NCBI GenBank assembly: GCA_030530485.1
Contig: JAUMUX010000003.1
Location: 13,685-77,684, forward strand
DNA from: a bacterium
GTDB lineage: Bacteria; Patescibacteriota; Saccharimonadia; Saccharimonadales; Saccharimonadaceae
Direction: 5' to 3'
Length of the DNA stretch: 64,000 nucleotides
Shown: piece by piece, positions 1 to 64,000 of the stretch
Layout of the letters: the number at the start of each line of letters is the position of its first letter
Numbering within the stretch: the first letter of the stretch is position 1
Program-made: the position numbers and the translations under genes
The notes under the pieces: generated by a model
Databases searched by the model: none
The model's input: the letters and a program-made list of their open reading frames with translations, nothing else
Told to the model about the DNA's origin: nothing

Positions 1-12
1 GTTTTCGAAAAT

Positions 13-1296
13 TTATTTCGAATTGAGTTTAACCAATAAATCAACTGCTTTTTCAGTCAAAAGCTGATTTGCCAAATCGCGACGAACTTCATCGCTTTCG
101 AGCTGAGCCAAAGCTTCTTTACTGTTGCCGTATTGCGCCTTGAGCTGTTCGATTCGCGCGTCAACTTCTTCAAGAGTTGCCTCAACTTTTTCGACTTTCG
201 AAAGTTCCGCCAAAGCCAAGCCAGCCTTCACGCGAGCTTCCGCCGCTTCTTTTACGTCGCTTTCAAGCCATTCTTCGCGCGTTTTGCCCATTCGCTCCAG
301 ATAAGCGTTAAGTGTCAAGCCCGAATACATCAAATTTTGTTGCATATCCAATTCGATATTGCGCTTTTGGTCTTCAATCAAAATTTCTGGCACTGGCACT
401 TTTGATTTTTCCGCCAATTCGCGCACCAGTTCATCTTTAAATTTATCGTCGGCTTCGTGTTCTTTTTGATGTTTCAAATCTTCTTTGATTTGCTTTTCAA
501 AATCTTCAACAGTTTTAAATTCGCCCAATTTCGCCACAAATTCTTCGTTCAATTCTGGCAAAATATTTTCACGAACTTCGTGGATTTTTACCTCAAAAAC
601 CACTTTCGCGCCCGCTAAATCTTTAGCGTGATAATCCTTTGGAAATTCCAAATCAAGCGCAAGCTCTTCACCCGCTTTTTTGCCAATCAAACCTTCTTCA
701 AAGCCCGGAATGAAAGATTTCGAACCAAGCTCCAGTGGGAAGTTTTCGGCTTTTCCACCGTCAAAAGCCACGCCGTCCTTTTTGCCCAAAAAGTCGATAA
801 GCACTTCGTCGCCATTTTTCGCAGCGCGCTTAACTTCTTTTTTCTCGGCAAAATTGGTTCGAATTCGCTCAATCGTTTCTTCGATTTCCTTTTTAGAAAC
901 CTTCACCGCAGCTTTTTTCGCGCTGAGATTTTTATAATCGCCAAGTTCAACTTTTGGCAAAACTTCAGTTTCGGCAGTAAATTCAAGTTCCGTATTTGCC
1001 GCAAATTTGGTAATTTCCACCTCTGGGCGGTTCAAAGCCTGAATACCTTTTTCCAAAAACGCTTCGGCAGTCGCTTTCGAAACCGCATTTTCGAGCGTTT
1101 CGTTCGCCAAAAGCGCAGGGTCAACTTGCGCCGCTACCATTTCGAGCGGAGCTTTACCCTTTCGAAAACCACCAATTTTTACATCTTTTGCAAGTTTAGT
1201 CAGCGCCACTTGCTCGGCTGCTTCAAGTTCAGTCTTGCCAAGTGTAATCGTCAAGCGAACTTTAACCTCTGAAATATTTTCTACTTTTATCTTCAT
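13..1296 (-). CDS. tig: trigger factor (ribosome-associated chaperone, PPIase)
   Basis: 427 aa ORF; N-terminal ribosome-binding region, central FKBP-like GFRKGKAP motif, typical length and domain order. Confidence 0.9.
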   Translation of the reverse strand: MKIKVENISEVKVRLTITLGKTELEAAEQVALTKLAKDVKIGGFRKGKAPLEMVAAQVDPALLANETLENAVSKATAEAFLEKGIQALNRPEVEITKFAANTELEFTAETEVLPKVELGDYKNLSAKKAAVKVSKKEIEETIERIRTNFAEKKEVKRAAKNGDEVLIDFLGKKDGVAFDGGKAENFPLELGSKSFIPGFEEGLIGKKAGEELALDLEFPKDYHAKDLAGAKVVFEVKIHEVRENILPELNEEFVAKLGEFKTVEDFEKQIKEDLKHQKEHEADDKFKDELVRELAEKSKVPVPEILIEDQKRNIELDMQQNLMYSGLTLNAYLERMGKTREEWLESDVKEAAEARVKAGLALAELSKVEKVEATLEEVDARIEQLKAQYGNSKEALAQLESDEVRRDLANQLLTEKAVDLLVKLNSK

Positions 1297-1570
1297 ATTC
1301 TTTAATTATATCATAGCCCGATTTTTTAAGCAAAAAAGAACGCCTGAGCGCCCAAGAAAATTAATCGTCGGTATTAGCTATAGAGCAAAGAAAGAAACAT
1401 ACCGAAGACAAGCAAAATAAAACAGCCAGAAGAGCTTCCCCTTGAACTACATAAAGCATGCAAATACAAAGATTTATAGCACCTGCAATAGCATAGCTAA
1501 TAACTTCCGGTTTCTCCATAAAGAACTCACCCCGTTTCTGATTTTATGTCATAATTGTATCATAAAAATA

Positions 1571-2134
1571 CTATTTTGTCAATCGGTTGCGTCGCACAAA
1601 TTCATACATCAAAATGCCGCTCGCCACGCCCACATTCACGCTGCGAGTTGAACCAAACTGCTCAATCGCTACCATTTTTTCGCAATTTTCCAGCATTTCT
1701 GCCGAAAGCCCATCGCTTTCGTTACCAAAAATCAGCACCGAATTTTCTTCCAAAATTGCCTCGCTCAAATTTTCGGCGCCTTTTTGGTTGTCTATAGCAA
1801 TCAGTTTGAGCTGATTTTCACGTGCCCAAGCCACGAAATCCGCCACCGTTTGATGATGAAAAACGTGCATATACGCCTCAGTTTTCATCGCGCCGCGCCG
1901 ATTCCAGTGCCGCCGACCAATAATATGAATTCCTGCCGCGTTGAAAGCGTTGGCATTGCGCGCGATTGCGCCGATATTAAAATCGTGCTGAAAATTCTCA
2001 ATCGCCACATGAAAATGTGAACGATTTTGGTCGAGCTGCGCCTTGATTTCTTCCACTTCTAAACCTTTAAAATCGTCGATGAGATTTCGCGTATCGTTTT
2101 CGGCGGTGAGAATTTCTGGCGTGTTATCTGCCAT
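1571..2134 (-). CDS. SpoU/TrmH-family RNA 2'-O-methyltransferase
   Basis: 187 aa; SPOUT-class motifs (IFGNESDGL, C-terminal VNVGVASGILMYE knot region). Confidence 0.7.
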   Translation of the reverse strand: MADNTPEILTAENDTRNLIDDFKGLEVEEIKAQLDQNRSHFHVAIENFQHDFNIGAIARNANAFNAAGIHIIGRRHWNRRGAMKTEAYMHVFHHQTVADFVAWARENQLKLIAIDNQKGAENLSEAILEENSVLIFGNESDGLSAEMLENCEKMVAIEQFGSTRSVNVGVASGILMYEFVRRNRLTK

Positions 2135-3722
2135 TGCGCACCAATTTGGCGATGTTTTTTGGCTCGTTATTCGCCTTGACGCCAGGATTTAAAATCTTGT
2201 GCGGGTCAAAAATTTGGCGGATTTGCGCGTTCAATTCTTCAACTTCAGCGCCCAAAGTATGCGCCACGAAACTACCGTAAATTCGCCCTTCGCCCGCGCC
2301 ATAGCCCAACTCGCCATCAACAGTTGCAAGCAATTTGTTAAGCTCCGCCAAAAATTCGAAAGCTTTTCGACGGTCGCTAACTTTCGAAAAATCAAATTCT
2401 GCCAGAATTTCGAAAATCGAAGTCAAAGCCGAACCTTGAATCGGCGCAGGGATGTCGAATTTTTGAGCGATTTTTTGCAAGCCAAGATAAAATTGTTCGA
2501 AGCGCTCAAGAGGAACATAAACGCCCTGAATTGGGAAGATTTCTTCGTGAATCACACCAGAACGCGCCCGAATCGTTTCGCGAACGTCTCGAATTGCCTC
2601 AAGCTCGGTGTTTTCAGACTCAGTTCCGTCTGGCTTCCAAAAAGTTGCGCCTTCGAATTTATCGGCGGCTTTTTCGATTTTACGCAAAACGCTGGCGATT
2701 TTGCGCTGATTGCGTTCTGAAATACCAACCACCAAAACCAGCTTCGTTGCTAAATTCTGCTCCACACGCTCGATGTAAAATTGGTATTTTTTGCCGCTCG
2801 CCACCGCCGCTTCAAACATTTTGCCGTCAATCATATCAATAATATCGGGGCGAAATGCGCGAATCATATCGATGAAATCGCGCGCGTCATCACGATTTTC
2901 GAAAGAAATTACCGCAAATTCAGTCTCGTTGGTGATATATTCAGCGCTAAAAGTTGTCCGATTAACCACGCCGAGCGTGCCGAGCGAACCGAAAAATAAT
3001 GGCGTTAAATCGAATGATCCATCGGCATTTTTGACTTTCGAAATTCCCGCGTAACCATAACTCGCGTCGTCTTCGATTTTCGAAATCAGTTCGAAATTAT
3101 CTTCGATTAAAGTGTCGATTTCGCGATAAATATCGCCTTCAAAATTTTGTAAAGCCAGTTTTTCATCTAATTCGCGCTTCGAAATACGGCGAGTTTGAAT
3201 CAAATCGCCATTCGCCAAAACCACTTCAAGCTCGCGCGTCGCCTCTAAAAGTTCGCCATAATTATATTTTTCGCTGGGCAAATTCATCGCGATTGCGCCA
3301 CCCACCGTGAGCATTTCGCCCGCTGGAGCTTGAAGCACGCTCATCGCCTGAGAGCCAATCGCCAAATTCAACTTTGCGAAATTCGTGCCAGCCTGCGCAC
3401 GCACCGTTTTTGCCCGCAAATCGAGCTCTTCAACATTATCAAGATGGCGCGAAAGGTCGAGAATAATCCCCTCACCAATCGAGGAGCCGTCGGTGCTACC
3501 ACCAAAACCGCGTGCCGTCACGCCAAAAGTATGACCCTTTTCGGCGAGCTGCCAAGAAAAACGCATAATTTTGCGCACGTCATCAGTAATTCGTGGATAA
3601 ACCACAATCTTCGGTTCAATTTTAAGAATACTTCGGTCGGTTGAAAATTGCTTAAGCCGCGATTCTCGCGCCGAAACTTCACCCAAAATATGCCCGTTTA
3701 AGTATTTCGCTATATTACTCAT
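2124..3722 (-). CDS. FAD-linked oxidase (GlcD / D-lactate dehydrogenase-like FAD-binding oxidoreductase)
   Basis: 532 aa; PCMH-type FAD-binding region (GVTARGFGGSTDGSS, GEGIILDLSRHL), overlaps upstream gene by 11 nt. Confidence 0.65.
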   Translation of the reverse strand: MSNIAKYLNGHILGEVSARESRLKQFSTDRSILKIEPKIVVYPRITDDVRKIMRFSWQLAEKGHTFGVTARGFGGSTDGSSIGEGIILDLSRHLDNVEELDLRAKTVRAQAGTNFAKLNLAIGSQAMSVLQAPAGEMLTVGGAIAMNLPSEKYNYGELLEATRELEVVLANGDLIQTRRISKRELDEKLALQNFEGDIYREIDTLIEDNFELISKIEDDASYGYAGISKVKNADGSFDLTPLFFGSLGTLGVVNRTTFSAEYITNETEFAVISFENRDDARDFIDMIRAFRPDIIDMIDGKMFEAAVASGKKYQFYIERVEQNLATKLVLVVGISERNQRKIASVLRKIEKAADKFEGATFWKPDGTESENTELEAIRDVRETIRARSGVIHEEIFPIQGVYVPLERFEQFYLGLQKIAQKFDIPAPIQGSALTSIFEILAEFDFSKVSDRRKAFEFLAELNKLLATVDGELGYGAGEGRIYGSFVAHTLGAEVEELNAQIRQIFDPHKILNPGVKANNEPKNIAKLVRNGR

Positions 3723-3791
3723 TTGCCTCTATTTTACCACAAGCGAAATCATTGCGCAAGATTGGATTTTTTAAAATTTTTCTGGTAAAAT

Positions 3792-4655
3792 ATGATTATG
3801 TATTCTAGAGCTACCCCTTTTGAACGGGCGGATAAAATCGCTGGCACACACCAAAAAATCGACCGCGCTGCACGTTTAACTTTGCGCCAAATTCGCCGCG
3901 AAACTCTGCCCAATTCGCAAATTCATTTTCCGAAAATCGATGAAATTCTGCGTTTTGAAGGCTCGGGCGGACCAGATGGAATCAAAACCAAATCGCCTGG
4001 CAAAGATGAACCTTGGCATTTTGTTGACCCAAATGGCGACAATTCACAAAAAATGTTCACTTACGTACAAAATCATCTCGAAAATCTTTCTACCGCGCTG
4101 GCCGAAAAAAACTACGTTCGCGCCAGTTTTGAAGCTGGCTGGATGGCGCACGCTATCACCGACGCGCTCACGCCCGCCCACCAATATCCGATGGAAGACA
4201 AAATCATCGAGATTTCGGGCAAGCACCCCAGCGAACGCATCAAATTGAACCAAAAAATGTTTTTACCGGGCGAAACTTGGCGCAAACGCCTTTCTGCCAA
4301 CTGGAAATATCTCGGCCCCAAGGGCGTGATGAGCTCGCATATGCTTTACGAAATGGGTGTTGCTGTGATGATTACCACGGTTTCTGCCAAAAAACTCAGC
4401 AAAATGGCTTCAAAAAAAGAACTCGCGCGGCTTAAAAATGGCGAATTTATGCAAATTTTCGAAGAAGAGATTCAATTTGTGGCGGCGAAAAAATATTACC
4501 AAACCTTCGTGCGCAAAGGCTGGACTTCGAAATTAGCCAAAGAAACTCGCCAAATTTTGCTGCCAGAAATTTCGAAAGTGGTGGCGTTGAGCTGGTTGGA
4601 AGGCATTCGCTTGGCTGAAGAAAAAATCGCGAAAGGAGAATTTTCGAAAAGTTAA
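3792..4655 (+). CDS. zinc-dependent phospholipase C / S1-P1 nuclease superfamily protein, no signal peptide
   Basis: WHFVDPNGD resembles the PLC HFYDPDNG motif; HAITDALTPAH reproduces the H-x3-D-x5-H zinc-ligand spacing of Bacillus PLC (HYLGDVNQPMH). Confidence 0.5.
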   Translation: MIMYSRATPFERADKIAGTHQKIDRAARLTLRQIRRETLPNSQIHFPKIDEILRFEGSGGPDGIKTKSPGKDEPWHFVDPNGDNSQKMFTYVQNHLENLSTALAEKNYVRASFEAGWMAHAITDALTPAHQYPMEDKIIEISGKHPSERIKLNQKMFLPGETWRKRLSANWKYLGPKGVMSSHMLYEMGVAVMITTVSAKKLSKMASKKELARLKNGEFMQIFEEEIQFVAAKKYYQTFVRKGWTSKLAKETRQILLPEISKVVALSWLEGIRLAEEKIAKGEFSKS

Positions 4656-4674
4656 TTTCTTTTGAAAACAGCTT

Positions 4675-5253
4675 ATGAATATTCGAATTATCTCTGGGAT
4701 TTTCAAAAATCACAAAATCAGCGCGCCGAATAGTCGCCAAACTCACCCGATGAGCGAGCGGATTCGCAATGCGATTTTTAATGCGGTTCAGGCGGAAATT
4801 CCGCAAGCCGAAGTGCTCGACGCTTTCGCGGGCACGGGTGCGCTGGGGCTGGAAGCGCTTTCACGCGGTGCGAAATCGGTGGTTTTTATTGAAAAAAATC
4901 GCCTTAGCCAAAAAATCTTGGCGCAAAATTTAGAAATTCTGGAAAAATCTGAAAACGCGGGCGAAGCGAAATTGATTCGCGCAAGCGTGGCTGGCTGGCT
5001 CAATTCGAGCGCCGCACAATTCGAAATTGGCGAAATCAAAAATCTGCCCACTTTCGACCTTATTTTTGCTGACCCGCCATATTTCGACCCGCAATTTCCA
5101 ACGCTCGAAAAGCTCAGCGAGCGCGTGAAAAGCGGTGGCTTGATGGTGGTTTCGCAGCCCAAAGATTTAGAGGATTTTTCAGCTGAAAATCTCACCCAAA
5201 TTAGCGCCAAAGTTTATTCTAGCGCCAAAATTCTGATTTTTCGAAAAAGCTAA
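4675..5253 (+). CDS. rsmD: 16S rRNA (guanine966-N2)-methyltransferase RsmD
   Basis: 192 aa; AGTGALGLEALSRGA SAM motif and DPPY catalytic motif. Confidence 0.8.
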   Translation: MNIRIISGIFKNHKISAPNSRQTHPMSERIRNAIFNAVQAEIPQAEVLDAFAGTGALGLEALSRGAKSVVFIEKNRLSQKILAQNLEILEKSENAGEAKLIRASVAGWLNSSAAQFEIGEIKNLPTFDLIFADPPYFDPQFPTLEKLSERVKSGGLMVVSQPKDLEDFSAENLTQISAKVYSSAKILIFRKS

Positions 5254-5898
5254 TTATTCGGTTTCTTCGTCGGCAAAAACATTCGAAAGCGAAAGAATCA
5301 CTGGCACGAAAACTAAAAAGAAAACTTCCAGTTCCGACCACCAAAACGAGACAAAAATCACCACGATAATTGAGAATAAATTAAACCCGAGGCGCAACAA
5401 ATGGCGTTTTCGTAGCGCCGCACCACCTTCGAAATAATGAAACAAGCCCGAGCCGCGAGTTTTCGAACTGAGCGAAACCCAGCGAATACAAAATTCAGTG
5501 AAAAAATAAATCGCCGCATAAGAAAGCGCAGGCAAAGTTGCTGTCGGATTTTGAATCATCCACTTCATAAAAAACGGCAGCAGCGAAAGCGAAAATAGAA
5601 ACATCAGGTTTTTCCAAACGAAACTATTCGTCACAGTGCGAACTTTTTCAAGCACCCGATGATGGCGCGTCCACTGCAAACCAACAATCACAAAACTGGC
5701 AAAATAAATCAAAAGCGCACGCGAAAGTTCAAAAATTTGCGCAACTTCCATCGATTTTGGCACTGGGATTTCCAGCACCATCAGCGTAATGATAATCGCA
5801 ATAAAACCGTCCGAGAGCGCCTCCAAGCGGTCGGTTGAAATTTCACCCCCGTGATAATATTTGCTGGCGCGCATCCAACGTCGGCCAAATCCCATCAT
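5254..5898 (-). CDS. TMEM175-family potassium channel (DUF1211)
   Basis: 214 aa polytopic membrane protein with RLEALSDGFIAIIITLMVLE signature. Confidence 0.65.
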   Translation of the reverse strand: MMGFGRRWMRASKYYHGGEISTDRLEALSDGFIAIIITLMVLEIPVPKSMEVAQIFELSRALLIYFASFVIVGLQWTRHHRVLEKVRTVTNSFVWKNLMFLFSLSLLPFFMKWMIQNPTATLPALSYAAIYFFTEFCIRWVSLSSKTRGSGLFHYFEGGAALRKRHLLRLGFNLFSIIVVIFVSFWWSELEVFFLVFVPVILSLSNVFADEETE

Positions 5899-5915
5899 TT
5901 TCCCCCTTAATTTTT

Positions 5916-6500
5916 TTAATCACGAACCATTCCGAGATTTTGTTTGATATATTTTTCTGGCTCAAGCACCACTTTTTTCACAAAATCAGCTATCGCCAAT
6001 CGCGAAATATTGTTTGCGTAAATGATTTCGCCTTTCGGAATGAGCTGATATGAACGGTCGGGTGAATTATCAAACCAACCTGGTCGCAAAATCGTGTAAT
6101 CTAAATTCGAAGCTTCAATTTTGTCCGCAGCCTCACGATACGGAAGTATAATTTCTGCAACTTCCCCGTTCTGACCAGGCAGTTCGCCATATATTCCGTA
6201 AGAAGTGATAAAAATCAGACGTTTGGCTCCAACCTCGTTCATTGCTGAAATAATTTCAGCAGCCATATGCGGCAAATCGCCAGATAGCGCCACAAAAACT
6301 ACATCTGCGCCCAGAATGGCCCTCGTCAGTGCTTGCATATCATTTATGTCGGCAGCTATTTTGGTAATTCGCGGATTTTGGGCAAGTCTATCGGCTGAGC
6401 GCGAAAATAATGTCAATTCCGCATCCGTCTCGTTTAGTAGGATTTCAGTAGCTGCTCTTCCGAGTGAGCCAGTCGCCCCAATAATCGTCACTTTTGTCAT
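5916..6500 (-). CDS. NAD(P)H-binding atypical SDR family oxidoreductase
   Basis: 194 aa; N-terminal IIGATGSLG Rossmann motif, NmrA-like length. Confidence 0.65.
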   Translation of the reverse strand: MTKVTIIGATGSLGRAATEILLNETDAELTLFSRSADRLAQNPRITKIAADINDMQALTRAILGADVVFVALSGDLPHMAAEIISAMNEVGAKRLIFITSYGIYGELPGQNGEVAEIILPYREAADKIEASNLDYTILRPGWFDNSPDRSYQLIPKGEIIYANNISRLAIADFVKKVVLEPEKYIKQNLGMVRD

Positions 6501-6519
6501 TTCTTATCTCCTTTCAAAT

Positions 6520-6528
6520 ATTATATCA
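6520..6528 (-). promoter_or_regulatory. extended -10 TGATATAAT for the SDR gene
   Basis: ggcgTGaTATAAT then AGGAGA RBS and ATG at 6500. Confidence 0.4.
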
Positions 6529-6559
6529 CGCCGTTTGCGCCAGTTCAAAATTATTTTTC

Positions 6560-6602
6560 GAAAAATAAAAAATCGCCCTTCGAATTTCGAAAAGCGATTT
6601 TG
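6560..6602 (-). terminator. intrinsic terminator after rpsG
   Basis: 8-10 bp stem aaaatcgc/gcgatttt with a 17-nt loop containing two TTCGAA copies, followed on the minus strand by a T-run. Confidence 0.5.
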
Positions 6603-6609
6603 TTTAAGA

Positions 6610-7089
6610 TTAGCCTCGTGCGAAGTGAGCAAATGCGCGGTTGGCTTCTGCCATTCGGTGAGTGTCTTCTTTTTTCTTGAAAGCTGCGCCAGTTTCGTTG
6701 TAAGCGTCAACAATTTCAAGTGCCAAACGCTGACTGTAAGGCATTCCGCTGCGAGCGCGAGCGCTTTGCACAAGCCACGAATATGCGAAGTGCATCTGGC
6801 GGTGTCCCTGAACTGGGAACGGAATTTGGTAGTTTGCACCACCAACGCGTCGAGATTTAACTTCGAAAGCTGGCGAAATATTTGCCAAAGCTTTTTCGAA
6901 AACTTCTAACGGATTTTCGCTGTCAAGTCGTCGAGCGGCTTCTTCGAGCGCTTTATAAACAGCTTTTTCGGCAGCTAATTTTTTGCCGTCAAGCATAGAT
7001 TTGTTGATGAGTCGTTGAACTAAAATTGACTGATATTTGCGGTCTGGTTTTAGTTCGCGTTGTAGTTTCTTGGTAACTTTTCGGGGCAT
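6610..7089 (-). CDS. rpsG: 30S ribosomal protein S7
   Basis: 159 aa, strongly conserved S7 sequence, immediately downstream of rpsL. Confidence 0.95.
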   Translation of the reverse strand: MPRKVTKKLQRELKPDRKYQSILVQRLINKSMLDGKKLAAEKAVYKALEEAARRLDSENPLEVFEKALANISPAFEVKSRRVGGANYQIPFPVQGHRQMHFAYSWLVQSARARSGMPYSQRLALEIVDAYNETGAAFKKKEDTHRMAEANRAFAHFARG

Positions 7090-7091
7090 TT

Positions 7092-7505
7092 TTATTTCTC
7101 CTTCTTCGCACCGTATTTCGAACGGCCTTGTTTACGGTCTGAAACGCCTTGAAGGTCGAGTGCACCACGCACGATATGGTATCGCACGCCTGGAAGGTCG
7201 GGCACACGTCCACCACGCACCAAAACTACGGCGTGTTCTTGCAAGTTGTGACCTTCACCACCAATGTAAGCCCAAACTTCGTGACCATTTGTCAAGCGAA
7301 CACGAGCAACTTTTCGAAGCGCCGAGTTAGGCTTTTTAGGTGTTTTTGTAGTAACTTTCACACAAACTCCGCGTTTGAGTGGCGCATTTTGTGCGTAATA
7401 TTTAGTTTTGAGCGCATTGTGAATGCGACCAAGCGCTGGCGATTTTGATTTTTTCGCAGCAACTTTTCGCGGTTTGCGCACCAATTGGTTGATTGTTGAC
7501 ATCAA
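7092..7505 (-). CDS. rpsL: 30S ribosomal protein S12
   Basis: 137 aa, conserved S12 sequence ([16 protein letters not shown]). Confidence 0.95.
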
Positions 7506-7703
7506 TTCTCCCTAAATTTATTTAATATTCCGAATTCGAAAAGTGATAAGTTTTTCGAAATTCGCCTCATATTTTTCGAAACAGCATTTTCGAAAAATGT
7601 CTTTACCTTTCTGCTTTCGAAATATCCACACACGATTTTTCGAACCAGAAAGAGGAAACTCGCCTACTATATTACCAAATTTTTTTGCAAAAATCAAGAG
7701 ATT

Positions 7704-8411: not shown

Positions 8412-9073
8412 TATAATCCTCCTTCAAATTCATTTTTGCTTAAAATCAACGCCAAATTCCGATTTCGAATCCGCAGCTCATCAATAAATTCTTTTTGATT
8501 CAAACCGCGCGGCAAATCCACCTGATAAGTGAGCTCAAACAAACTGCCCATATTTTTGAGTCGCGTCGAAAGAAGCGTCGATTTCACCTTGAAATTTTCG
8601 AAAATCGGGTTGAGCAACTGCTCGGCGTCGGCGTCTTCGGGCAAAGTAATTCGCAAAATTTGGCGCGAATCTGGCGAATCGAAAAGTGGAATTTTGGTCA
8701 AAATTGCCAGCATTAGCGAAATCAAAAGCGTCGCCATTATCGCAAAAATCACGTAGCCCGTGCCCGTTGCCAAGCCCATCGCCATCGCAAAAAACACACT
8801 CACAATTTCGCGCGAGGTTCCCGGCAAACTGCGAAATCGCACCAGCCCAAACGCGCCCATAATCGCCACGCCCGTGCCGAGGTTTCCGTTCACCATCATC
8901 ATCACGGCTTGCACCAAAATCGGCAAACTCACCAGCGTAATCGCAAAATTTTTAGTAAAATTGGTCGTGCGAGTGTGCGTAAAAGCGATTATCAAACCGC
9001 ACAAAATTGAAACCGCCGAACAAATCGCCAGATTTTCGAGCGTCAAGCCCGCTGAAATTATTGAATTAAACAT
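8411..9073 (-). CDS. DUF4956-family integral membrane protein
   Basis: 220 aa; N-terminal TM helices followed by a soluble domain, typical DUF4956 layout; overlaps VTC gene by 8 nt. Confidence 0.55.
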   Translation of the reverse strand: MFNSIISAGLTLENLAICSAVSILCGLIIAFTHTRTTNFTKNFAITLVSLPILVQAVMMMVNGNLGTGVAIMGAFGLVRFRSLPGTSREIVSVFFAMAMGLATGTGYVIFAIMATLLISLMLAILTKIPLFDSPDSRQILRITLPEDADAEQLLNPIFENFKVKSTLLSTRLKNMGSLFELTYQVDLPRGLNQKEFIDELRIRNRNLALILSKNEFEGGL

Positions 9074-9759
9074 TTTCCTCCTTAATTTTCATCTTTTGTT
9101 GATAAATTTTGCCGTATTTCGAAAACGAAGTCGGATAAATCTGCTCTTTCGAAAGATAATCCACAAACCACTGCGGAAAACCGTGCATCGTTTTGGTTTC
9201 CATAATAAAAGTGGGGTTTTCGAAAAATTTCACCGCGTTCGAATCGTTTTCGAAATTCAAATTCTGCTTTCGAAAACGCAAATTCGCGTCGAGCGTGATG
9301 CGCAATTCGTTTTTCGTCCGTAATTTATACGAAAGGCGGTCGTAAGCGATAAAAACCTTTGGTTTGAGATTTTTTTCGCGAAAAATATGCTGAATTTCGC
9401 GCCCAACTTGCGAATTTTCCAGCTCGCCCGTGCGCAAAAATCGGGCAAAATCGGCACTTTTCAGCGAAATCCGACGCTTAAAAACCGTGCCGTCGATTTT
9501 CGATTTAATCTCCAGAAAAAACCTCGTGCGCATATTTTTTGCCGTAGCTCCGCGCGCGCACTTTGCATTTATAATCTTCGCTTTGCACCGACTGCGAAAT
9601 CAGCTCGTTTTGCGCGTTATCGAAATAAACATTGTAAATCTCGGTTTCGAAAAAGCCGTCGTGCGCCATTTCTTGCTCTAATTTTTGGCGAATTTTAGCA
9701 AATTGACGCTGATTTAACAAATATTTCTTCTCTTTGCGCTTAAAAAAATTTTTAGACAT
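9066..9759 (-). pseudogene. VTC-domain (polyphosphate polymerase domain) protein, reading frame broken by +1 in an A6/T6 run
   Basis: N-terminal part (9505-9759) has the REKKYLL and RARSYGKKYAHEVF VTC motifs; C-terminal part (9066-9533) continues with FLEIKSK in another frame; the join is the homopolymer at 9511-9522. Confidence 0.6.
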
Positions 9760-9834
9760 TTTAGAATTCTCCTTAAATTCTAAAACCGATTATACCTGCA
9801 AATACTTTATTTTCGCTTTAAGGGAAATTTCCGA

Positions 9835-9870
9835 CAATAAAGAAAGACGACTGCTTTTTTGCAATCGTCT
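9835..9870 (-). terminator. intrinsic terminator hairpin downstream of small ORF 9905-10195
   Basis: 10-bp stem agacgactgc/gcaatcgtct (1 mismatch) with T/A6 loop and T-rich tail. Confidence 0.4.
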
Positions 9871-9904
9871 CTTTATAGCATTTTTAAAAAATATTGTAAA
9901 GTAG

Positions 9905-10195
9905 CTATTTATCTAACTCTTCTTCAGGCTCTATTATTCGAATACCTGCACCCATGGCGCGGCTTTTTTCTTCAAAATATTCTCGTTCTTTTTGGCTAAA
10001 TTTTTCAATGTTAAATTCCTCAACAGCTTTTTTCATTTCTGCGAAGAGATCGTCTTTATTTTGCTCTATTTCTTCTTCATCAGAGAGTAATTTTGTGTCT
10101 TCAGTAATCTTAGCTTTCAGCATATATATCCCATTTTTATTATCATATTCTACACTATTTATTATAAACTTTTTGCCGTGATTTAGCAATTTCAT
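9905..10195 (-). CDS. hypothetical acidic protein in AT-rich islet
   Basis: 96 aa ORF with extended -10 promoter upstream and terminator downstream; no recognisable domain; atypical codon usage. Confidence 0.3.
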   Translation of the reverse strand: MKLLNHGKKFIINSVEYDNKNGIYMLKAKITEDTKLLSDEEEIEQNKDDLFAEMKKAVEEFNIEKFSQKEREYFEEKSRAMGAGIRIIEPEEELDK

Positions 10196-10253
10196 AAGAT
10201 TGTTTAGTGATTATAGGTTTAGTTTTCATAGGCTTAGTTTTCATATATTTATA

Positions 10254-10262
10254 ATTATATCA
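10254..10262 (-). promoter_or_regulatory. extended -10 element TGATATAAT for ORF 9905-10195
   Basis: ggcgTGaTATAAT; the same 13-mer occurs upstream of the SDR gene at 6520-6532. Confidence 0.4.
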
Positions 10263-10385
10263 CGCCTTATTTTATTTTAGTAAATTACATAAATTATCAG
10301 GATTCAAAAATTAGCCCCTGCTAATCAACCTCGAAAATTCAGCCAGAATAAAAAAAGACGATAACGAATTATCATCTCTTCATTC

Positions 10386-10470
10386 TGGTACGCGAGAAAG
10401 GACTTGAACCTTCACGCCAATTGGCACTAGTTCCTAAGACTAGCGTGTCTACCAATTCCACCACTCGCGC
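10386..10470 (-). tRNA. tRNA-Leu (anticodon UAG)
   Basis: reverse complement folds as a cloverleaf: acceptor GCGCGAG/CUCGCGU, anticodon loop CUUAGGA, long variable arm, T arm GGTTCAAGTCC, encoded CCA. Confidence 0.8.
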
Positions 10471-51756: not shown

Positions 51757-53388
51757 TTAAAGCACACGGTTGATTTCTTCGATGGTGGTTTCTCCACGCA
51801 GCGCCGCCAAAACACCTTGCTGAATTAGCGTAATCAAGCCATCTTCGCGCGCCTGCTTTTCGATGACTTCCGCCGAAATCGAACCACGCTCGCCGCGCAA
51901 AAAAGCCGCGATGTTTTCATTCACCAACATCATTTCCATTATCACCATTCGCCCCTTGTAGCCAAACGGATTTTCGGCGCTGACGATTGGTTTCCATAGC
52001 TTGAAATCGCCCGAAATATCTTGCGGAATTTTCTCGCGAGGAACACCTTCGAGCACTTTTCGAATCCAATTTTTAGTGGCTTCATCTGGTGTGTATTCTT
52101 GTTTGTTCGAATCGAGTTTTCGCACCAAGCGCTGAGCAATCAGCAAGCGAATTGCGCTCGAAAAAATTGGGTTCATACCAATCATATCAATCATTCGCGA
52201 AAAAGCCGCCGAAGTCGAATTGGCGTGAAAGCTCGAAAGCACCAAATGGCCCGTAATCGAAGCTTGAATCGCCGTCCGCGCCGTTTCGTTATCGCGAATT
52301 TCGCCCACCATTACCACATCTGGGTCGAGGCGCAAAACCGAGCGAAGGCCTTCACTAAAACTCGCGCCCCGCGTCGTATCAATCGGAATCTGCGAAATCC
52401 CGCCAATGCCGTATTCAATTGGGTCTTCCAGCGTGATAATTTTGCGGTCGGTGGTATTGAGCGCATTCAACATTGAATAAAGCGTGGTCGATTTACCTGA
52501 ACCAGTCGGTCCAATCATCAACACCATACCGTGCGGGTGCGAAATCACTTCGTCAATCTCGGCGCGCTGGGCTTTTTCAATTCCCAACAAATCAAGCTGA
52601 AACATACTTTCGTCAAAGTTGAAAAGGCGCAAAACGGCGTCCATACCATACATCGTCGGCACAGTTTCAACACGCAAATTCAAAAGATGCGAAGCGCCCG
52701 ATTCGTCGAAAATGTCTTTTTGCATATGCCCCGATTGTGGCGTTTGCGCGGCGCTTGAAACGCCCGCCCGCGAAGAAAGCTCGCCCATAATCACTCGGTA
52801 GCGGTCGCGACTGAGTTCCGCCACAGGATGTAAAGCACCATCAACACGCATTCGGATTCGAATTGAATGTCGCTGATTTTCGATATGAATATCGCTCGCA
52901 CCCAGCCTATCCGCTTGGTCGATTAGATAATCGAAGACTTTATCCGAAGCCACATTATCCAGCGTTTGCGAAACTTGCGCCAGGGTCTCGCTGTCGCCCT
53001 CGCTGGCAATCTCGATGTCGTCGTAAATCACTTCTCTCGGCGGGTCGTAGCGCCGCATAATTTTCTTCCATGCCGACTCGGAAATTAAATAAAATTCAAT
53101 ATTTTTGCCGTCGTCTTCGTAAGTTTGGCGTAATTTTTGCACCACCGAACGCGGCGTGCGGCTGGTTATCATCACTAGCCAAGGCTGATTTGTTGGTTCA
53201 TCGCCCGCTTGAAGCGCCGCCAAAAAACCCGCATACATTTGCTCTTTCGAAAAAACATTCATCGCTAGCGGAAAAGTATCTTCAAATTCGCGCGCATCAA
53301 GATAAGCCAAGCCGAGAATCTCCGCTCGCTTTCTGGTGGCATTTTCTTCTTCTTCGCGCCTCCGAATCTGAATTTGGTGTTCATCCAT
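51757..53388 (-). CDS. pilB: type IV pilus assembly ATPase PilB / GspE family
   Basis: 543 aa; Walker A GPTGSGKST, Asp box, His box, tetracysteine-free GspE C-terminal domain. Confidence 0.9.
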   Translation of the reverse strand: MDEHQIQIRRREEEENATRKRAEILGLAYLDAREFEDTFPLAMNVFSKEQMYAGFLAALQAGDEPTNQPWLVMITSRTPRSVVQKLRQTYEDDGKNIEFYLISESAWKKIMRRYDPPREVIYDDIEIASEGDSETLAQVSQTLDNVASDKVFDYLIDQADRLGASDIHIENQRHSIRIRMRVDGALHPVAELSRDRYRVIMGELSSRAGVSSAAQTPQSGHMQKDIFDESGASHLLNLRVETVPTMYGMDAVLRLFNFDESMFQLDLLGIEKAQRAEIDEVISHPHGMVLMIGPTGSGKSTTLYSMLNALNTTDRKIITLEDPIEYGIGGISQIPIDTTRGASFSEGLRSVLRLDPDVVMVGEIRDNETARTAIQASITGHLVLSSFHANSTSAAFSRMIDMIGMNPIFSSAIRLLIAQRLVRKLDSNKQEYTPDEATKNWIRKVLEGVPREKIPQDISGDFKLWKPIVSAENPFGYKGRMVIMEMMLVNENIAAFLRGERGSISAEVIEKQAREDGLITLIQQGVLAALRGETTIEEINRVL

Positions 53389-53877: not shown

Positions 53878-54435
53878 ATGAAAAATCCGCATTCCGCCGC
53901 CAATCGCGCGCGTCAGCAAACCCGAGAAATCATTGTTTTGGCACACAATATTCGCTCCACGCATAATATCGGCGCGATTTTGCGCACCAGCGAAGGTTTT
54001 GGCGTTTCAAAAATTATTTTTAGCGGATATTCGCCTTTTCCAACTTTCGAAAATGAAAATTTCGCCCAAACGGGTCGCCTGCCACACCTTGCGCAAAAAA
54101 TCACCACGCAAATCGCCAAAACTGCACTCGGCAGCGAAAAAGATGTTCCTTTCGAAATCTCAACCGATATTTTCGAAACCATTTCGAAGCTTCGAAAAAA
54201 TAATTTCGAAATTATCGCGCTCGAACAAACCGAAGATTCAACTTTTCTGTCCGACTTAACCTTAGCTAAAACCGCCAAAATCGCCCTGCTTTTGGGCGAA
54301 GAGGTTGAAGGAATCACGCCAGAATTAGTGGCGCTTTGCGACCGCGCGCTCGAAATTCCAATGTTCGGTTTGAAAGAAAGCTTCAATGTTTCGGTCGCGG
54401 CGGGAATTGCGCTTTACAAAATCGCCTGCGAGTAA
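53878..54435 (+). CDS. SpoU/TrmH-family RNA methyltransferase (second copy in window)
   Basis: 185 aa; HNIGAILRTSEGFGV, LLLGEEVEGI, SFNVSVAAGIALYK SPOUT motifs. Confidence 0.75.
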   Translation: MKNPHSAANRARQQTREIIVLAHNIRSTHNIGAILRTSEGFGVSKIIFSGYSPFPTFENENFAQTGRLPHLAQKITTQIAKTALGSEKDVPFEISTDIFETISKLRKNNFEIIALEQTEDSTFLSDLTLAKTAKIALLLGEEVEGITPELVALCDRALEIPMFGLKESFNVSVAAGIALYKIACE

Positions 54436-59752: not shown

Positions 59753-60781
59753 TTAAAAGCTCGCTGCGATTTTTCGAATATCTTCGGGCGAAAGCTTATT
59801 ACTACCGTTAATCGTGTAAAGCGTGCCGTTATTCACCCAAGCCGCTTCATTATTGCGATTTTTATATATTAAAAGCCCTTTTTCTTGATAAGTTGAATAA
59901 TCTTTGTCCCACTTATTTTGCACATAATTTTCGAGCAAAGCCACGCTGTCCCAAACGGTTTGCGCTTGCTTCACAGTGTAAGAATTGGCACCATCTGAAT
60001 AATCCAGATTCACTGTTTTGCCGTCAGAATAAGCCAAACCTTTCAGGCTATAACCCTGAGCAACATATTGTGGCAAAGTAGCGTCGACGCCAGATTGAGC
60101 CGCCGCGATGCGCATTGAAATATTCGAAGCGTTGGCGTAAACCAAATATCCGCAAGACAAAGCCAAAACTGCGCAGCTCGCGATGAAGCCCGCCATTCGT
60201 TTCGAAAACCAACTGCGCTTTCGAATTCCACGTTTTTTCTTGTTCGATTTTGCATCTTCACGCGATTTTTCCAGCGCCGCAGTAATCGCAGTTTCCTTAA
60301 TTTCTTGAGGCGAAAGCAAAACTCGCTCGGTTTTTTGCTGGCGCATTTTTTGGAGAGCTTTTTGGTGAATTTCATTCGCCTGAACTGGCGCGATAGGTTC
60401 GTCGTCGGTTTGTTTTGGCTGAAGCTTAGTATTTTGATTTTGCGAAATTGGAGAAATTACGCGTGCCGCCGAGCCACGCACACCTTCGAATTTCGAAATT
60501 TGCGCGTGAGTCGTCTCGCTACTTTTCGAAATTGCCATTTTGCGCGCTTCGATATAATTATGGCGCATTTTAAATTGTTCAATCGCATGATTTTGGCTTG
60601 AACTCAAATTTTCTGGCCGCTGCACAAAACGCCGATTTAGCGTCGACGAGCGCTGCAATGTATTATGTATATTTTCAGCAATATTTTGATTTACTTTTGG
60701 TGCTTCGCTTAACGCCTTGCCCGTTTCAGCATCATAACGAATGCCGTTTACCTCAATAATTTTACTCATTTTTCTCTCCAT
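59753..60781 (-). CDS. hypothetical single-pass membrane protein with extracellular C-terminal domain
   Basis: 342 aa; cytoplasmic N-terminus, TM helix MAGFIASCAVLALSCGYLVYA, about 140-aa extracytoplasmic domain. Confidence 0.35.
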   Translation of the reverse strand: MERKMSKIIEVNGIRYDAETGKALSEAPKVNQNIAENIHNTLQRSSTLNRRFVQRPENLSSSQNHAIEQFKMRHNYIEARKMAISKSSETTHAQISKFEGVRGSAARVISPISQNQNTKLQPKQTDDEPIAPVQANEIHQKALQKMRQQKTERVLLSPQEIKETAITAALEKSREDAKSNKKKRGIRKRSWFSKRMAGFIASCAVLALSCGYLVYANASNISMRIAAAQSGVDATLPQYVAQGYSLKGLAYSDGKTVNLDYSDGANSYTVKQAQTVWDSVALLENYVQNKWDKDYSTYQEKGLLIYKNRNNEAAWVNNGTLYTINGSNKLSPEDIRKIAASF

Positions 60782-60991
60782 TTAGCTTATGTATATCATA
60801 CCGCAAATGGTTATTTTTTGCAAGTTTTTTCTTTAGCTATTGACATTTTATCACTTTTATGCTAAAATATGGTTAGTCGGTTGAAAATTATAACTTAAAT
60901 TTCAACCAAGCACATTGAAAAGTTGGGGGTGTTTCTCCGCTTTAAGTGCTTGGTTTTCAAAAAATCAAAAACGAAAAAAGAGGAAAACACC

Positions 60992-61965
60992 ATGAAAAAA
61001 ATTATTACGCTTTTGGCGGTCGCTATGACCGCACTGTTGTTTGCTACCAATGTCCGTGCAGAAGACTATGGAACATTCTTAGATAGAGGTTTTGAAAAGA
61101 CTGGCATGAGCAATGCGTACTATATAGTTAGCTCCAGAAAGAACGACAAAGACGTTCGTTCGTTCTATCTAGATGCATCAAGGTCTCCGCTAAGCTCGTT
61201 CGTCAGTACGATAAAAATCTCCCTTAAACCAGGAGAGTCCTTCACTATTAACCCTAAACAAATTGAGGGTTATGCTAATACCGGGACTGCAACTATCGAA
61301 TCGTATAAAAATGGTGATAAGAACGACTACACAAGAAACGAAGTGCAGTTACCTCACACCATTAAGTATGAAGATCTGGAAGAATCTCAATACCAGGATA
61401 ACGATATTTCTGCGTCAGTGCGTATCCATAATTCTGTAATCGATAAAAATGCTGAACTCCAAGAAATCACAACAACTAATTTTCTTAATGAAGAGAGGTT
61501 TAGCTCTTATAACATTTATGCAATGGTTGGTAAAAAGCTACCTGTTGCGAAAAAAATGAACGGTTCAGAGTTTCAAGGTATTACGTTCATCTACGGAAGT
61601 AAAGAAACTAAGCTGTTCCATTCTAGCGTTTACAAAGAAGAGTTCTCTTCTTATGCTGTTAGAGCATACTATGGTAGCACTTCGATTGGCTATCTGGATG
61701 AACCTGTAGAGGAATCTGAAGACACTGGTTATTGGGAATTCCAGGCACTATTCAACCTGTAGCTAAATCTTCCGAAGAAGAAACGCAAGCTTCTTCTGAG
61801 GAGACTGAGACCGAAACTACGACCGAAGTCCAAGAATCAGAAGCTCGAGCCGCTGGCGAGCAAGTCGGCAGAGGCATCCTGACAACAATTGTTGTCTTTG
61901 GATTGTTACTCGTCGGGTTTATTGGTTCTTGCATCTTTGTCTTCATCAAGATTCGCAAAAAATAA
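60992..61965 (+). CDS. secreted surface protein with signal peptide and C-terminal TM anchor; reading frame apparently broken between 61720 and 61762
   Basis: ATG 60992 with AAGAGGAAAA RBS; signal peptide MKKIITLLAVAMTALLFATNVRA; ORF stops at 61762; E/T-rich linker, TM helix and KIRKK tail continue in another frame (open from 61720) with no own RBS; strong terminator after 61965; codon usage and TTCGAA content differ from the rest of the window. Confidence 0.4.
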
Positions 61966-61986
61966 TATTTTCACCCAACTTTAACT

Positions 61987-62018
61987 AAACCCCACACTTG
62001 GTGGGGTTTTTCTTTTTT
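61987..62018 (+). terminator. intrinsic terminator after the surface-protein gene
   Basis: 9-bp GC-rich stem aaaccccac/gtggggttt, 5-nt loop, T-run. Confidence 0.7.
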
Positions 62019-62019
62019 G

Positions 62020-62052
62020 AAAAAATCACCCCGAGCAGTTCGAGGTGATTTA
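62020..62052 (-). terminator. intrinsic terminator after eno
   Basis: imperfect stem aaatcaccccgag/ctcgaggtgattt, T-run on minus strand. Confidence 0.55.
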
Positions 62053-62069
62053 TTTTTCGAATTTCGAAA

Positions 62070-63347
62070 TTATTTTTCGAAAGGTCGCGCAAGCTCAAGT
62101 TCTGGGTTAGCTTCAGCAATTCGCATCAATTCGTTGTATTTTGCTACACGGTCGGTGCGCGAAAGCGAACCAGTCTTGATTTGACCACAGCCCAAACCAA
62201 CAGCCAAATGCGCAATCGTCACATCTTCGGTTTCGCCAGAACGGTGGCTCATCACGGTGTTGTAGCCGTTGTTTTGCGCCAATTTCACTGCTTCGATAGT
62301 TTCGGTCAAAGAACCGATTTGATTTGGCTTGATAAGAATCGCATTCGCTACGCCCAAATCGATTGATTTTTGTAGAAGTTTTGAATTTGTCACCATCAAA
62401 TCATCGCCAACCAATTGGATTTTTGCGCCAAGTTTTTCGGTCAAAATCTTCCAGCCATCCCAGTCGTTTTCTGCCAAGCCGTCTTCGATCGAAACGAATG
62501 GATATTTCGAAGTTAGATTTTCGTAAAATTCAATCATTTCTTCACTCGAAAGCACCGCATCGTTAGCTTTCAAATCGTATTTTTCTTCTTTATAAAATTC
62601 GCTCGAAGCTGGGTCTGATGCAAAGGCAATATCTTCGCCAAGTTTGTAGCCTGCATTTTCGATAGCTTTCGAAATCAGCTGAAGCGGTTCTTCGTTGCCA
62701 TTTTGCACTTTTGGCGCATAACCTCCTTCATCGCCCACAGTGGTTGGGTAATTTTCGTTTTTAAGCACTTTCGCCAAAGCGTGGAAGGTTTCCGCACCCA
62801 TCTGCACGGCTTCGAAAATAGTTTTCGCACCAACTGGCATAATCATATATTCCTGAATATCTGTTGCCCAACCAGCATGCGCGCCACCGTTCATCACGTT
62901 CATCATTGGAAGCGGAAGACTTGGTTTTGAACCAGTTTTTTCAGCGATATATTGCCAAAGTTCCACCCCTTTTGCATTCGCTACGGCTTTTGCGGCTGCA
63001 AGTGAAACCGCCAAAATTGCATTCGCGCCCAAAGTTGATTTATTTTCAGTGCCGTCAAGTTCAATCATAATTCGGTCGATTTCTTCTTGATTTTCAGCAT
63101 TTTTGCCGATAAGCGCTTCACGAATTTGATTATTTACCGCCGAAACAGCTTTTGTAACCGCTTTTCCGCCAAAAGCAGCGCCACCATCGCGAAGTTCAAG
63201 CGCTTCACCCGAGCCCGTCGAAGCTCCGCTCGGAACCGCCGCGCGACCCATAGCGCCGTTTTCTAAAATTACATCCGCTTCAACCGTTGGGTTGCCGCGA
63301 GAATCTAAAATTTGTCGTCCTTTGATTTCTTTGATTGTATATTCCAT
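62070..63347 (-). CDS. eno: enolase (phosphopyruvate hydratase)
   Basis: 425 aa; highly conserved enolase sequence incl. SHRSGETED and active-site Lys region [12 protein letters not shown]. Confidence 0.95.
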
Positions 63348-63416
63348 ATTTCTATTTTACGATTTTTTTCAAAAACGGTCAAGCTTGCGGGCGGCAAAAT
63401 AAAACTGGAGCCGCTT

Positions 63417-64000
63417 TTAGCTCCAGTCCCAAGTGAATAATCTTTCGAAAAATGTTTTCGAATTTCCAGCGAAAGTCGTGGCACTATTTTGTGCTTCGGA
63501 AGAGGAATCTTCAGCTGCTTTGGCGTTTGAAACATCTGGCGAAACCTGCTCGGCGAACACCAGCAATCGCTTCTGGGCGGTTCCCAGCGGCGTGCAGGTG
63601 ATTAGCGTCATCCAAGCTTTGTCGTTACCTTTCACCACCTTCGAAACTTCCGTCGGCAAAACCACTTCTTTCGAACGCACCACGTAAGAATATCTCACGC
63701 CTTTGTAATTAGCGTAAAAAATATCGCCTTCTTCAAGTTTTTCGAGCTGGGCAAAAATGAATTTATAATCACCACCATCAAACAAATCGTTGCTCGAATG
63801 TCCGCTCAAAACCGTATTACCGAGCTGCCCCGGCACGCTATTTGCGCCAGCAATCGAGAAATGCGCCACGCCCTTTTCCATCGCCGCTAATTGCGAAGCT
63901 TGGTCTGCGCCAACACCATAAACCACCGGCACATCGACGTTAATTTTCGGAATAATCAGCCGCGATTCATCACCAACCGCAACGGTTGAATTCGGCGTTT
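63417..64000 (-). CDS. sortase (partial; N-terminus beyond window edge)
   Basis: TLITC catalytic Cys motif, LSGH His motif, conserved Arg; ORF remains open to the window end. Confidence 0.7.
   Translation of the reverse strand, partial: TPNSTVAVGDESRLIIPKINVDVPVVYGVGADQASQLAAMEKGVAHFSIAGANSVPGQLGNTVLSGHSSNDLFDGGDYKFIFAQLEKLEEGDIFYANYKGVRYSYVVRSKEVVLPTEVSKVVKGNDKAWMTLITCTPLGTAQKRLLVFAEQVSPDVSNAKAAEDSSSEAQNSATTFAGNSKTFFERLFTWDWS

Follow-up and report, generated by a model that had tools for sequence, protein, structure and literature searches.

Hyper-abundance of the palindrome TTCGAA in a 64-kb stretch of a Saccharibacteria genome

Introduction

The question raised by a 64,000-nt stretch of bacterial DNA (GCA_030530485.1, contig JAUMUX010000003.1, positions 13,685 to 77,684, forward strand; GC content, 44.2%), here called the window, is why a palindrome identical to a restriction target, TTCGAA, should be its most frequent hexamer. 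Judged by its UvrB sequence, the window is from Saccharibacteria, close to Nanogingivalis; the protein is 93% identical to that of three "Candidatus Saccharimonas sp." metagenome-assembled genomes (MAGs; L001 to L003), 87% identical to that of a Candidatus Nanogingivalis MAG (L004), and about 75% identical to that of Nanosynbacter. Here, we report that, in one clade, TTCGAA, preferably as the octamer TTTCGAAA, is created by point substitution and retained under a sequence-specific pressure on the DNA itself, which acts wherever constraint permits and in proportion to the residence time of the DNA.

Abundance of TTCGAA

TTCGAA occurs 310 times in the 64 kb (4.84/kb; 0 to 10 in per-kb bins) and TTTCGAAA, the most frequent octamer, 151 times (2.36/kb). 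The initial annotation of this DNA had reported 5 to 10 copies of TTCGAA per kb, where about 0.25/kb would be expected at random. The high density and the expectation both stand (an order-0 model gives about 19 sites, or 0.30/kb), and the upper part of the reported range does not, the mean being about 5/kb; for the eno gene, said to carry about 2/kb, we measured 3.1/kb. An order-1 model raises the expectation to 78 sites. Observed/expected ratios were compared with those of the highly iterated palindrome HIP1 (GCGATCGC) in seven pooled Nostoc loci, used as a positive control, and were as follows by Markov order.

TTCGAA, window: order 0, 16.4; order 1, 3.95; order 2, 2.25; order 3, 1.71; order 4, 1.15
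TTTCGAAA, window: order 0, 103; order 1, 9.9; order 2, 5.5; order 3, 4.2; order 4, 1.9; order 5, 1.2; order 6, 1.06
HIP1, Nostoc loci: order 0, 145; order 1, 156; order 2, 87; order 3, 40; order 4, 4.8; order 5, 1.5; order 6, 1.0

A higher-order ratio near 1 had been put forward as grounds for reducing the excess to ordinary compositional bias. That test is invalid at the top orders, because HIP1 collapses in the same way; a motif this common dominates the sub-words from which the model is built. Under the order-3 model, TTTCGAAA ranks first among the octamers of the window by z-score (27), and its half-sites are coupled, GAAA following TTTC with 7.2 times the probability with which it follows other NNNC words. 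The excess is therefore real, as first claimed, since the top-ranking hexamer and octamer survive dinucleotide, third-order, and synonymous-codon-shuffle null models.

The core hexamer is strict. T/A occupies the adjoining position in 68% of sites and the one beyond it in 40%, after which the composition is that of the background. One-mismatch variants of the octamer at inner positions number 4 to 19 copies each and those at outer positions 22 to 59, vs 151 for TTTCGAAA itself. This profile is as sharp as that of HIP1 in the Nostoc loci (145 copies, vs 1 to 8 for inner and 6 to 18 for outer variants), and deviations from HIP1 were likewise described by Elhai as concentrating at the outermost octamer positions (PMC4390886).

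Action on DNA rather than protein

The 310 sites comprise 274 genic and 36 intergenic copies. When synonymous codons were shuffled within genes, which preserves protein sequence and per-gene codon counts, 90 ± 8 copies of TTCGAA were obtained vs 274 observed and 25.7 ± 4.2 copies of TTTCGAAA vs 128 observed, so that a 3- to 5-fold excess remained. The motif occupies all three reading frames, as had been noted, being read as TTC GAA (Phe-Glu [FE]) 98 times, as nTT CGA Ann 46 times, and as nnT TCG AAn (xSK/xSN) 130 times. In each frame, codon choice depends on context. Phe-Glu is encoded as TTCGAA in 66% of cases vs 19% expected, and Phe elsewhere uses TTC in 25%; TCG accounts for 80% of Ser codons in nnT_AAn contexts and for 35% elsewhere; and CGA accounts for 69% of Arg codons in nTT_Ann contexts and for 20% elsewhere. 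Because this holds in every frame, the enrichment acts on DNA and not via proteins or codon usage.

The distribution of sites over coding and noncoding DNA, also described earlier, is graded. Intergenic DNA carries 6.8 TTCGAA/kb vs 4.7/kb in genes (4.35 vs 2.18/kb for TTTCGAAA). Along genes, the density is 1.8/kb in the first 36 nt, 4.6/kb in interiors, and 8.1/kb in the last 36 nt, which bears out the reported enrichment at C termini. Dipeptide over-use reaches 1.83-fold for FE and 1.59-fold for SK.

Distribution among relatives and other genomes

Relatives were compared at their UvrB loci (L001 to L004, about 45 other Saccharibacteria loci, and outgroups), with the following densities of TTCGAA.

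Window: 4.84/kb
L004: 3.60/kb
L001: 2.93/kb
L002: 2.70/kb
L003: 1.09/kb
About 45 other Saccharibacteria loci (GC content, 38 to 60%): 0 to 0.46/kb
Outgroups: similarly low

Since the other Saccharibacteria remain at 0 to 0.46/kb across this range of GC content, the enrichment is a clade trait and not an effect of GC; the possibility that it is general to genomes of 44% GC can be set aside, relatives of similar GC content carrying 0 to 0.5/kb. In L001 and L002, the CpG odds are ordinary (1.15), yet TTTCGAAA is the top octamer.

Avoidance of TTCGAA is usual where AsuII/NspV-type enzymes exist. Loci of Nostocales (L059 to L080, 270 kb), in which HIP1 is the top octamer, hold 1 TTCGAA vs 90 expected at order 1, in keeping with the contrast first drawn between the window and normal restriction-site avoidance.

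The Logan assembly L081, an independent one, matches the first 4,853 bp of the window at 100% identity and adds 12 TTCGAA sites in the 2 kb past the window edge. Exact lookup of the trigger-factor protein returned one 6.9-kb Logan contig only. Metagenomes were scanned for three TTTCGAAA copies within 84 bp, a pattern found at 8 places in the window, in none of 100 dinucleotide-preserving shuffles, and in only 39 stretches across the whole IMG/VR collection. The scan returned mainly short contigs with local tandem clusters and one extra likely clade member (L143). In the literature, we found no paper that pairs TTCGAA with Saccharibacteria or reports enrichment of TTCGAA or TTTCGAAA in any bacterium.

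A jumbo-phage-like viral contig (L118; IMGVR_UViG_3300020567_000331, positions 1 to 6983) carries dispersed TTCGAA at 6.3/kb and TTTCGAAA at 2.3/kb. Its dinucleotide profile differs from that of the window (GpC, 0.76; TpA, 0.27), and its DUF2201/VWA protein is 37 to 39% identical to proteins of Sinorhizobium phage Phosso and Pseudomonas phage PA5oct. It is an independent case, and the same palindrome can therefore turn hyper-abundant elsewhere.

Origin and turnover of sites

Synteny with L001 to L004 is kept at 75 to 81% nucleotide identity. Window sites are conserved at 42% in L001, 20% in L003, and 40% in L004 (0.42, 0.20, and 0.40, vs 0.11, 0.09, and 0.21 for other NNCGNN hexamers), and 0 of 27 are kept in Nanosynbacter. 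TTCGAA is thus retained 2 to 4 times better than other NNCGNN words among relatives that are about 77% identical and all motif-bearing. By presence across four genomes, the sites fall out as follows.

All four genomes: 5 sites
Window, L001, and L003: 6 sites
Window and L004: 8 sites
Window only: 14 sites
L001 only: 8 sites
L004 only: 4 sites

The comparison of orthologues that had been recommended thus gives lineage-only sites alongside shared ones; some sites were inherited, and others were gained separately in the individual lineages. In the relatives, the alternative states met most often are TTTGAA and TTCAAA, the products of CpG transitions.

Against Nanosynbacter orthologues (62% amino acid identity), the same peptide is found at 7 of 43 sites, where 12.8 would be expected. 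FE in the window corresponds there to FK, FN, FM, FT, FD, YE, LN, or LA, xSK corresponds to xAK, xTK, or xTG, and xRK corresponds to xRQ, xRA, or xRH. These differences indicate that the motif was built by synonymous and nonsynonymous substitutions after the clade had separated from other Saccharibacteria and that this went on in each lineage. Sites arose singly by point substitution, in every frame and in intergenic DNA, within the Nanogingivalis-related clade, and they override synonymous codon preference and, where constraint is weak, amino acid sequence. An origin from the tRNA T-loop (GGTTCGAATCC) was considered and rejected, there being one tRNA in the window and 0 copies of GTTCGAAC.

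Motif-poor segments

Three AT-rich segments had been described as essentially lacking the motif. They and the adjoining genes are as follows.

9780 to 10380: GC content, 29.5%; 1 site; 96-aa open reading frame (ORF) in which Pfam finds nothing; abuts tRNA-Leu (10386 to 10470)
51222 to 51710: motif-free; encodes a type IV pilin-like protein
51222 to 51815, minus strand: the type IV pilin-like gene, AT-rich and TTCGAA-free, with an N-terminal methylation motif
51757 to 53388, minus strand: PilB-type T2SSE ATPase, with the pilin-like gene directly downstream
60992 to 61960: motif-free; 279-aa protein without family match; lies within the largest site-free gap of the window (60525 to 62056)

Together, the three segments hold 1 TTCGAA vs 10 expected (P = 4e-4), so the description was sound. 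Although they make up 3.2% of the window, they contain 11 of its 106 copies of six 4-bp palindromes that are otherwise avoided (GATC, GGCC, CCGG, CATG, GTAC, and CTAG; P = 6e-4). They are probably DNA that was acquired or replaced recently and does not yet bear the resident signature; this combination of a missing motif and enriched avoided words is the evidence for a dependence on residence time. The neighborhood of a tRNA, as at 9780 to 10470, is a typical insertion site for mobile DNA.

Proposed mechanism and alternatives

We tentatively interpret TTCGAA as a highly iterated palindrome (HIP) kept by a clade-specific, sequence-specific factor, most likely as a methyltransferase-linked tag of self DNA. 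A protein peculiar to the clade would read the 6-bp palindrome in the manner of a symmetric dimer and so bias fixation; by analogy with HIP1, the likeliest reader would be an orphan or restriction-modification-derived TTCGAA methyltransferase. A marked site could then confer an advantage in a DNA transaction, of which recognition of self or kin DNA in natural transformation and recombination seems the likeliest, and site-creating substitutions would accumulate wherever coding constraint permits. For HIP1, methyltransferases of CGATCG and GATC are known (PMC4390886), and methylated HIP1 raises transformation of Synechococcus more than 100-fold (10.1101/2024.09.10.611283). Uptake in Campylobacter is restricted to RAATTY-methylated DNA (PMC10046745), and Saccharibacteria are naturally competent (PMC10633639). 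The PilB-type ATPase and pilin-like gene of the window were counted toward the plausibility of the tag.

Several observations weigh against this interpretation. A methyltransferase-motif screen of ORFs of at least 120 aa in about 140 kb of clade DNA (window, L001 to L004, L081, and L143) returned only the rRNA methyltransferase RsmD, and Pfam scans of 36 ORFs from the window, 4 from L118, and 2 from L081 returned no DNA methyltransferase or Vsr; as the screened DNA amounts to roughly 15% of one genome, absence of the enzyme from the genome does not follow. Methylation is not readable from sequence. The order-3 ratio is 4.2 vs 40 for HIP1, and the AA/TT and CpG excess of the genome contributes to it. 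Sites are clustered and not evenly spaced, unlike classical uptake sequences, and the cultivated Saccharibacteria that take up DNA (relatives of Nanosynbacter) are without such a motif. The conservation of sites, finally, is unremarkable when ranked among all hexamers (32 of 140, 89 of 207, and 60 of 183).

A more far-reaching form of the tag hypothesis holds that a HIP system arose independently outside the cyanobacteria, in ultra-small epibiotic Saccharibacteria, with methylated TTCGAA as a kin-DNA tag read by the type IV pilus/competence apparatus, and that transformation drive rewrote the codons and proteins of a genome of <1 Mb; taken jointly, these propositions are doubtful.

About equally questionable is a neutral by-product of biased repair (an Elhai ratchet or a process of the Vsr/Dcm type), in which methylation-coupled repair would convert near-sites to TTCGAA without any function. 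In E. coli, Dcm/Vsr very-short-patch repair, which shapes CCWGG/CTWGG frequencies, is a methyltransferase-linked bias that raises its own target word, modestly and with depletion of the mismatch-product word. Here, TTTGAA and TTCAAA, which as the commonest alternative states in relatives would suit such repair, are not depleted (2.1/kb in the window vs 1.0/kb in other Saccharibacteria, Nanosynbacter included), and each of the remaining one-mismatch neighbors is as frequent as in relatives or more so; a Vsr-type signature was rejected on these counts. Biased repair agrees with the accumulation of sites where constraint is weakest (intergenic DNA, C termini, and variable residues), with their high turnover between lineages, and with the placement of one-mismatch deviations at outer positions, as in HIP1 (PMC4390886). 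It predicts neither the short-range clustering nor the phasing described below, and no methyltransferase or Vsr-like gene that would drive it was seen in the about 140 kb of clade DNA.

The spacing of sites bears on an unlikely alternative, that TTCGAA is a binding or structural site for an abundant nucleoid-associated protein, phased T3-CG-A3 units organizing or bending the small chromosome; a nucleoid role was suggested for HIP1 by Xu et al. (PMC5861425). Neighboring sites are a median of 71 bp and a mean of 206 bp apart (coefficient of variation, 1.29), and pairs at 6 to 50 bp are in 2.65-fold excess. Neighbor distances are phased at ~10 bp, with a power of 62.8 vs 19.6 ± 7.1 after jitter of ±12 bp and a relative amplitude of 0.58 vs 0.19 ± 0.06, on about 215 pairs only. 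Two other signals of similar period are present: A/T tracts outside the motif are phased at about 10.8 bp (amplitude, 0.09 to 0.25), and hydrophobic-to-polar codon steps are phased at 10.0 bp (amplitude, 0.16). In this small sample of pairs, both the A-tract and the amphipathic-helix effects phase more weakly than the TTCGAA sites, a point in favor of a structural site. Each frame of the motif, however, encodes a hydrophobic-then-polar step, so part of the phasing may stem from protein structure, and part may reflect general A-tract phasing. The spacers, moreover, are very uneven, many being without TTCGAA and a few holding 3 to 6 sites, and there is no candidate protein.

Ordinary compositional or context-dependent mutational bias, by which TTCGAA would be the joining of the favored steps AA/TT, CG, and GA/TC, is largely refuted and has little probability left. 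The dinucleotide odds of the window are indeed extreme at a GC content of 44% (CpG, 1.66; GpC, 1.63; ApA, 1.58; TpA, 0.49), the observed/expected ratio falls to 1.7 for the hexamer at order 3 and to about 1.1 to 1.2 at the highest orders, and neighbor words, ATCGAA and TTTGAA among them, are likewise more frequent than in relatives. The octamer nonetheless keeps its 4.2-fold excess and top rank at order 3, with HIP1 approaching 1 at the top orders as well; the 7.2-fold coupling of half-sites, the scarcity of inner one-mismatch variants beside 151 octamers, the excess left after codon shuffling, and the near-normal CpG of L001 and L002, in which TTTCGAAA still leads, all run counter to it.

A proliferating micro-repeat or miniature mobile element carrying the palindrome, one of the first candidates proposed, is refuted by the lack of an extended consensus: copy number is high and slippage could produce local clusters (among them 11 pairs spaced 7 to 8 bp), but conservation ends at 8 to 10 bp, flanks vary from site to site and match background composition past ±2 bp, the sequences between neighboring sites are unrelated and form no larger repeat unit, and sites lie in frame in conserved genes, at positions where the orthologues of relatives differ by point substitutions.

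Comparison with known systems

TTCGAA belongs with the highly iterated palindromes, among which it would be an alternate HIP and not HIP1. Like HIP1, it is short, perfectly palindromic, and more frequent than any other k-mer of its genome (PMC4390886, PMC5861425). Both occur as single dispersed copies in all frames and in spacers, spread by substitution, shape codon and amino acid usage, and are clade-wide with exceptions; both show one-mismatch deviations mainly in the outermost positions, which flank a 6-bp core typical of type II methyltransferase targets, and an observed/expected ratio that falls to about 1 at maximal Markov order. The differences are that the TTCGAA motif has another, AT-flanked sequence, that the host phylum is Saccharibacteria with genomes under 1 Mb, that the octamer is denser (2.4/kb vs 0.94/kb in the Nostoc loci) at a lower order-3 ratio, that the cognate methyltransferase was not found in the ~140 kb of clade DNA, and that short-range clustering with ~10-bp phasing is seen here. 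HIP1 also has a reported periodicity of 10 to 90 kb, and the window spans only 64 kb. Conservation between genomes above a neutral level is a further HIP trait (Xu et al.); TTCGAA sites are retained better than other NNCGNN words but rank as ordinary among all hexamers.

The uptake signal sequences of Pasteurellaceae and DNA uptake sequences of Neisseriaceae are 9- to 12-nt nonpalindromic words, at about 1/kb and rather evenly spaced. TTCGAA, with its 6-bp palindromic core, density of 4.8/kb, and clustered sites, is not a word of this kind. It resembles them in its lineage-specific excess in genes and spacers, its preference for weakly constrained positions, its occasional presence in terminators, and its absence from recently acquired DNA, as well as in the competence of the host phylum (PMC10633639) and the presence of a PilB-type ATPase and pilin in the window.

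The RAATTY motif of Campylobacter jejuni is likewise an abundant 6-bp palindrome, and its methylated form marks self DNA (PMC10046745), the mechanism favored here; it differs in being degenerate, in owing its abundance mostly to AT-rich composition, and in that no substitution-driven hyper-enrichment has been described for it. These cases qualify the earlier statement that there is no described precedent, which does not hold for the phenomenon (HIPs [PMC4390886, PMC5861425], uptake sequences, and RAATTY [PMC10046745]) and does hold for the motif and the lineage.

The targets of BstBI, AsuII, and NspV are the identical hexamer, and a 6-bp palindrome is what dimeric type II enzymes typically recognize; genomes normally avoid restriction targets, whereas here 310 copies stand against 78 expected at order 1. 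Repeats of the repetitive extragenic palindrome or miniature inverted-repeat transposable element type differ from TTCGAA in having an extended consensus, with target duplications or terminal repeats.

The purpose of HIP1 has been open for about 30 years, with biased repair, nucleoid structure, and a methylation-dependent signal for uptake or recombination among the proposals. If an iterated palindrome has evolved independently a second time, the phenomenon is not confined to cyanobacteria and can be approached in a much simpler system, with genomes under 1 Mb and few DNA-binding proteins in a phylum that is naturally competent and genetically tractable. The density gradient among close relatives (4.8, 3.6, 2.8, 1.1, down to 0.2/kb) would permit phylogenetic profiling for the responsible gene. 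For annotation, the motif biases codon usage, FE and SK dipeptides, and C-terminal sequences, and motif-free patches flag recently acquired DNA.

Site clusters and other features of the window

The main local clusters and the genes beside them are as follows.

6557 to 6591: three sites in the spacer downstream of rpsG (S7 by Pfam), two of them within the loop of an AAATCGC/GCGATTT hairpin
7092 to 7505, minus strand: rpsL (S12 by Pfam)
7535 to 7644: six sites upstream of rpsL, the densest intergenic cluster, spaced 19, 21, 14, 27, and 23 bp
12930 to 13619, plus strand: ogt (Pfam)
13649 to 13676: AAAGCACTC-tttcgaaaag-GAGTGCTTT, a hairpin that has a stem of 9 bp and the motif at its apex and precedes a T run
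13688 to 14632, minus strand: gene convergent with ogt
16519 to 16575: four sites just downstream of the RNase J gene, one in the loop of an AAACCGC/GCGGTTT hairpin
16576 to 18657, minus strand: RNase J gene (Pfam)
29553 to 29589: convergent spacer in which TTTCGAAA occurs three times within 37 bp
45516 to 46529, minus strand: PIN/TRAM-domain gene (Pfam)
45604 to 45744: seven sites in 141 bp, in the C-terminal, weakly conserved part of the PIN/TRAM-domain gene
54151 to 54210: five sites in 60 bp, within a 185-aa ORF (53878 to 54435, plus strand)

The site list reproduces the six copies that the initial annotation had placed in 7506 to 7703 and the three in 29530 to 29600. That annotation also had the motif recurring in the loops of terminator hairpins; it is present at rpsG, ogt, and RNase J, but "repeatedly" overstates 3 to 4 of 310 sites, and an association with terminators was rejected because so few hairpins carry TTCGAA. 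Among the spacers of the window, there was no consistent tie of TTCGAA to divergent, tandem, or convergent arrangement.

The operator known as CIRCE (controlling inverted repeat of chaperone expression) has the consensus TTAGCACTC-N9-GAGTGCTAA. The hairpin at 13649 to 13676 (AAAGCACTC-N10-GAGTGCTTT) is similar to it but, being flanked by convergent genes, is more likely a bidirectional terminator.

The six avoided 4-bp palindromes number 9 (GATC; observed/expected, 0.04), 29 (GGCC), 23 (CCGG), 17 (CATG), 15 (GTAC), and 13 (CTAG), with GATC at positions 3016, 10048, 35841, 41529, 49383, 51458, 56059, 61373, and 62487. Avoidance of GATC is specific to this genome, L001 to L004 holding 1.4 to 3.4/kb, and every relative avoids another set, which suggests species-specific restriction-modification repertoires. 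The idea that avoidance of these words forces TTCGAA was rejected, as the synonymous alternatives hold no avoided word. The MAGs L001 and L002, with 93%-identical UvrB, have a GC content of 37% and CpG odds of 1.15, an unusually fast compositional divergence among close relatives.

Four further loci were noted. A VTC-domain protein (9066 to 9759, minus strand) is split into two overlapping ORFs, of which 9505 to 9759 covers profile positions 1 to 81 and 9066 to 9533 covers positions 80 to 231; the split reflects a frameshift, a pseudogene, or an error in sequencing. The 229-aa product of 48972 to 49661 (plus strand) combines a hydrophobic anchor at its N terminus with a GmrSD_C/HNH nuclease domain and may, from these predicted features, be a surface or secreted DNA nuclease. 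A 325-aa protein (49658 to 50635, minus strand) is a fusion of RNase HII to a UPF0102 (YraN-type, endonuclease-like) domain. At 5916 to 7505 (minus strand), rpsL-rpsG is followed by the gene of a 194-aa NAD(P)H-binding protein and not by fusA/tuf as in most bacteria.

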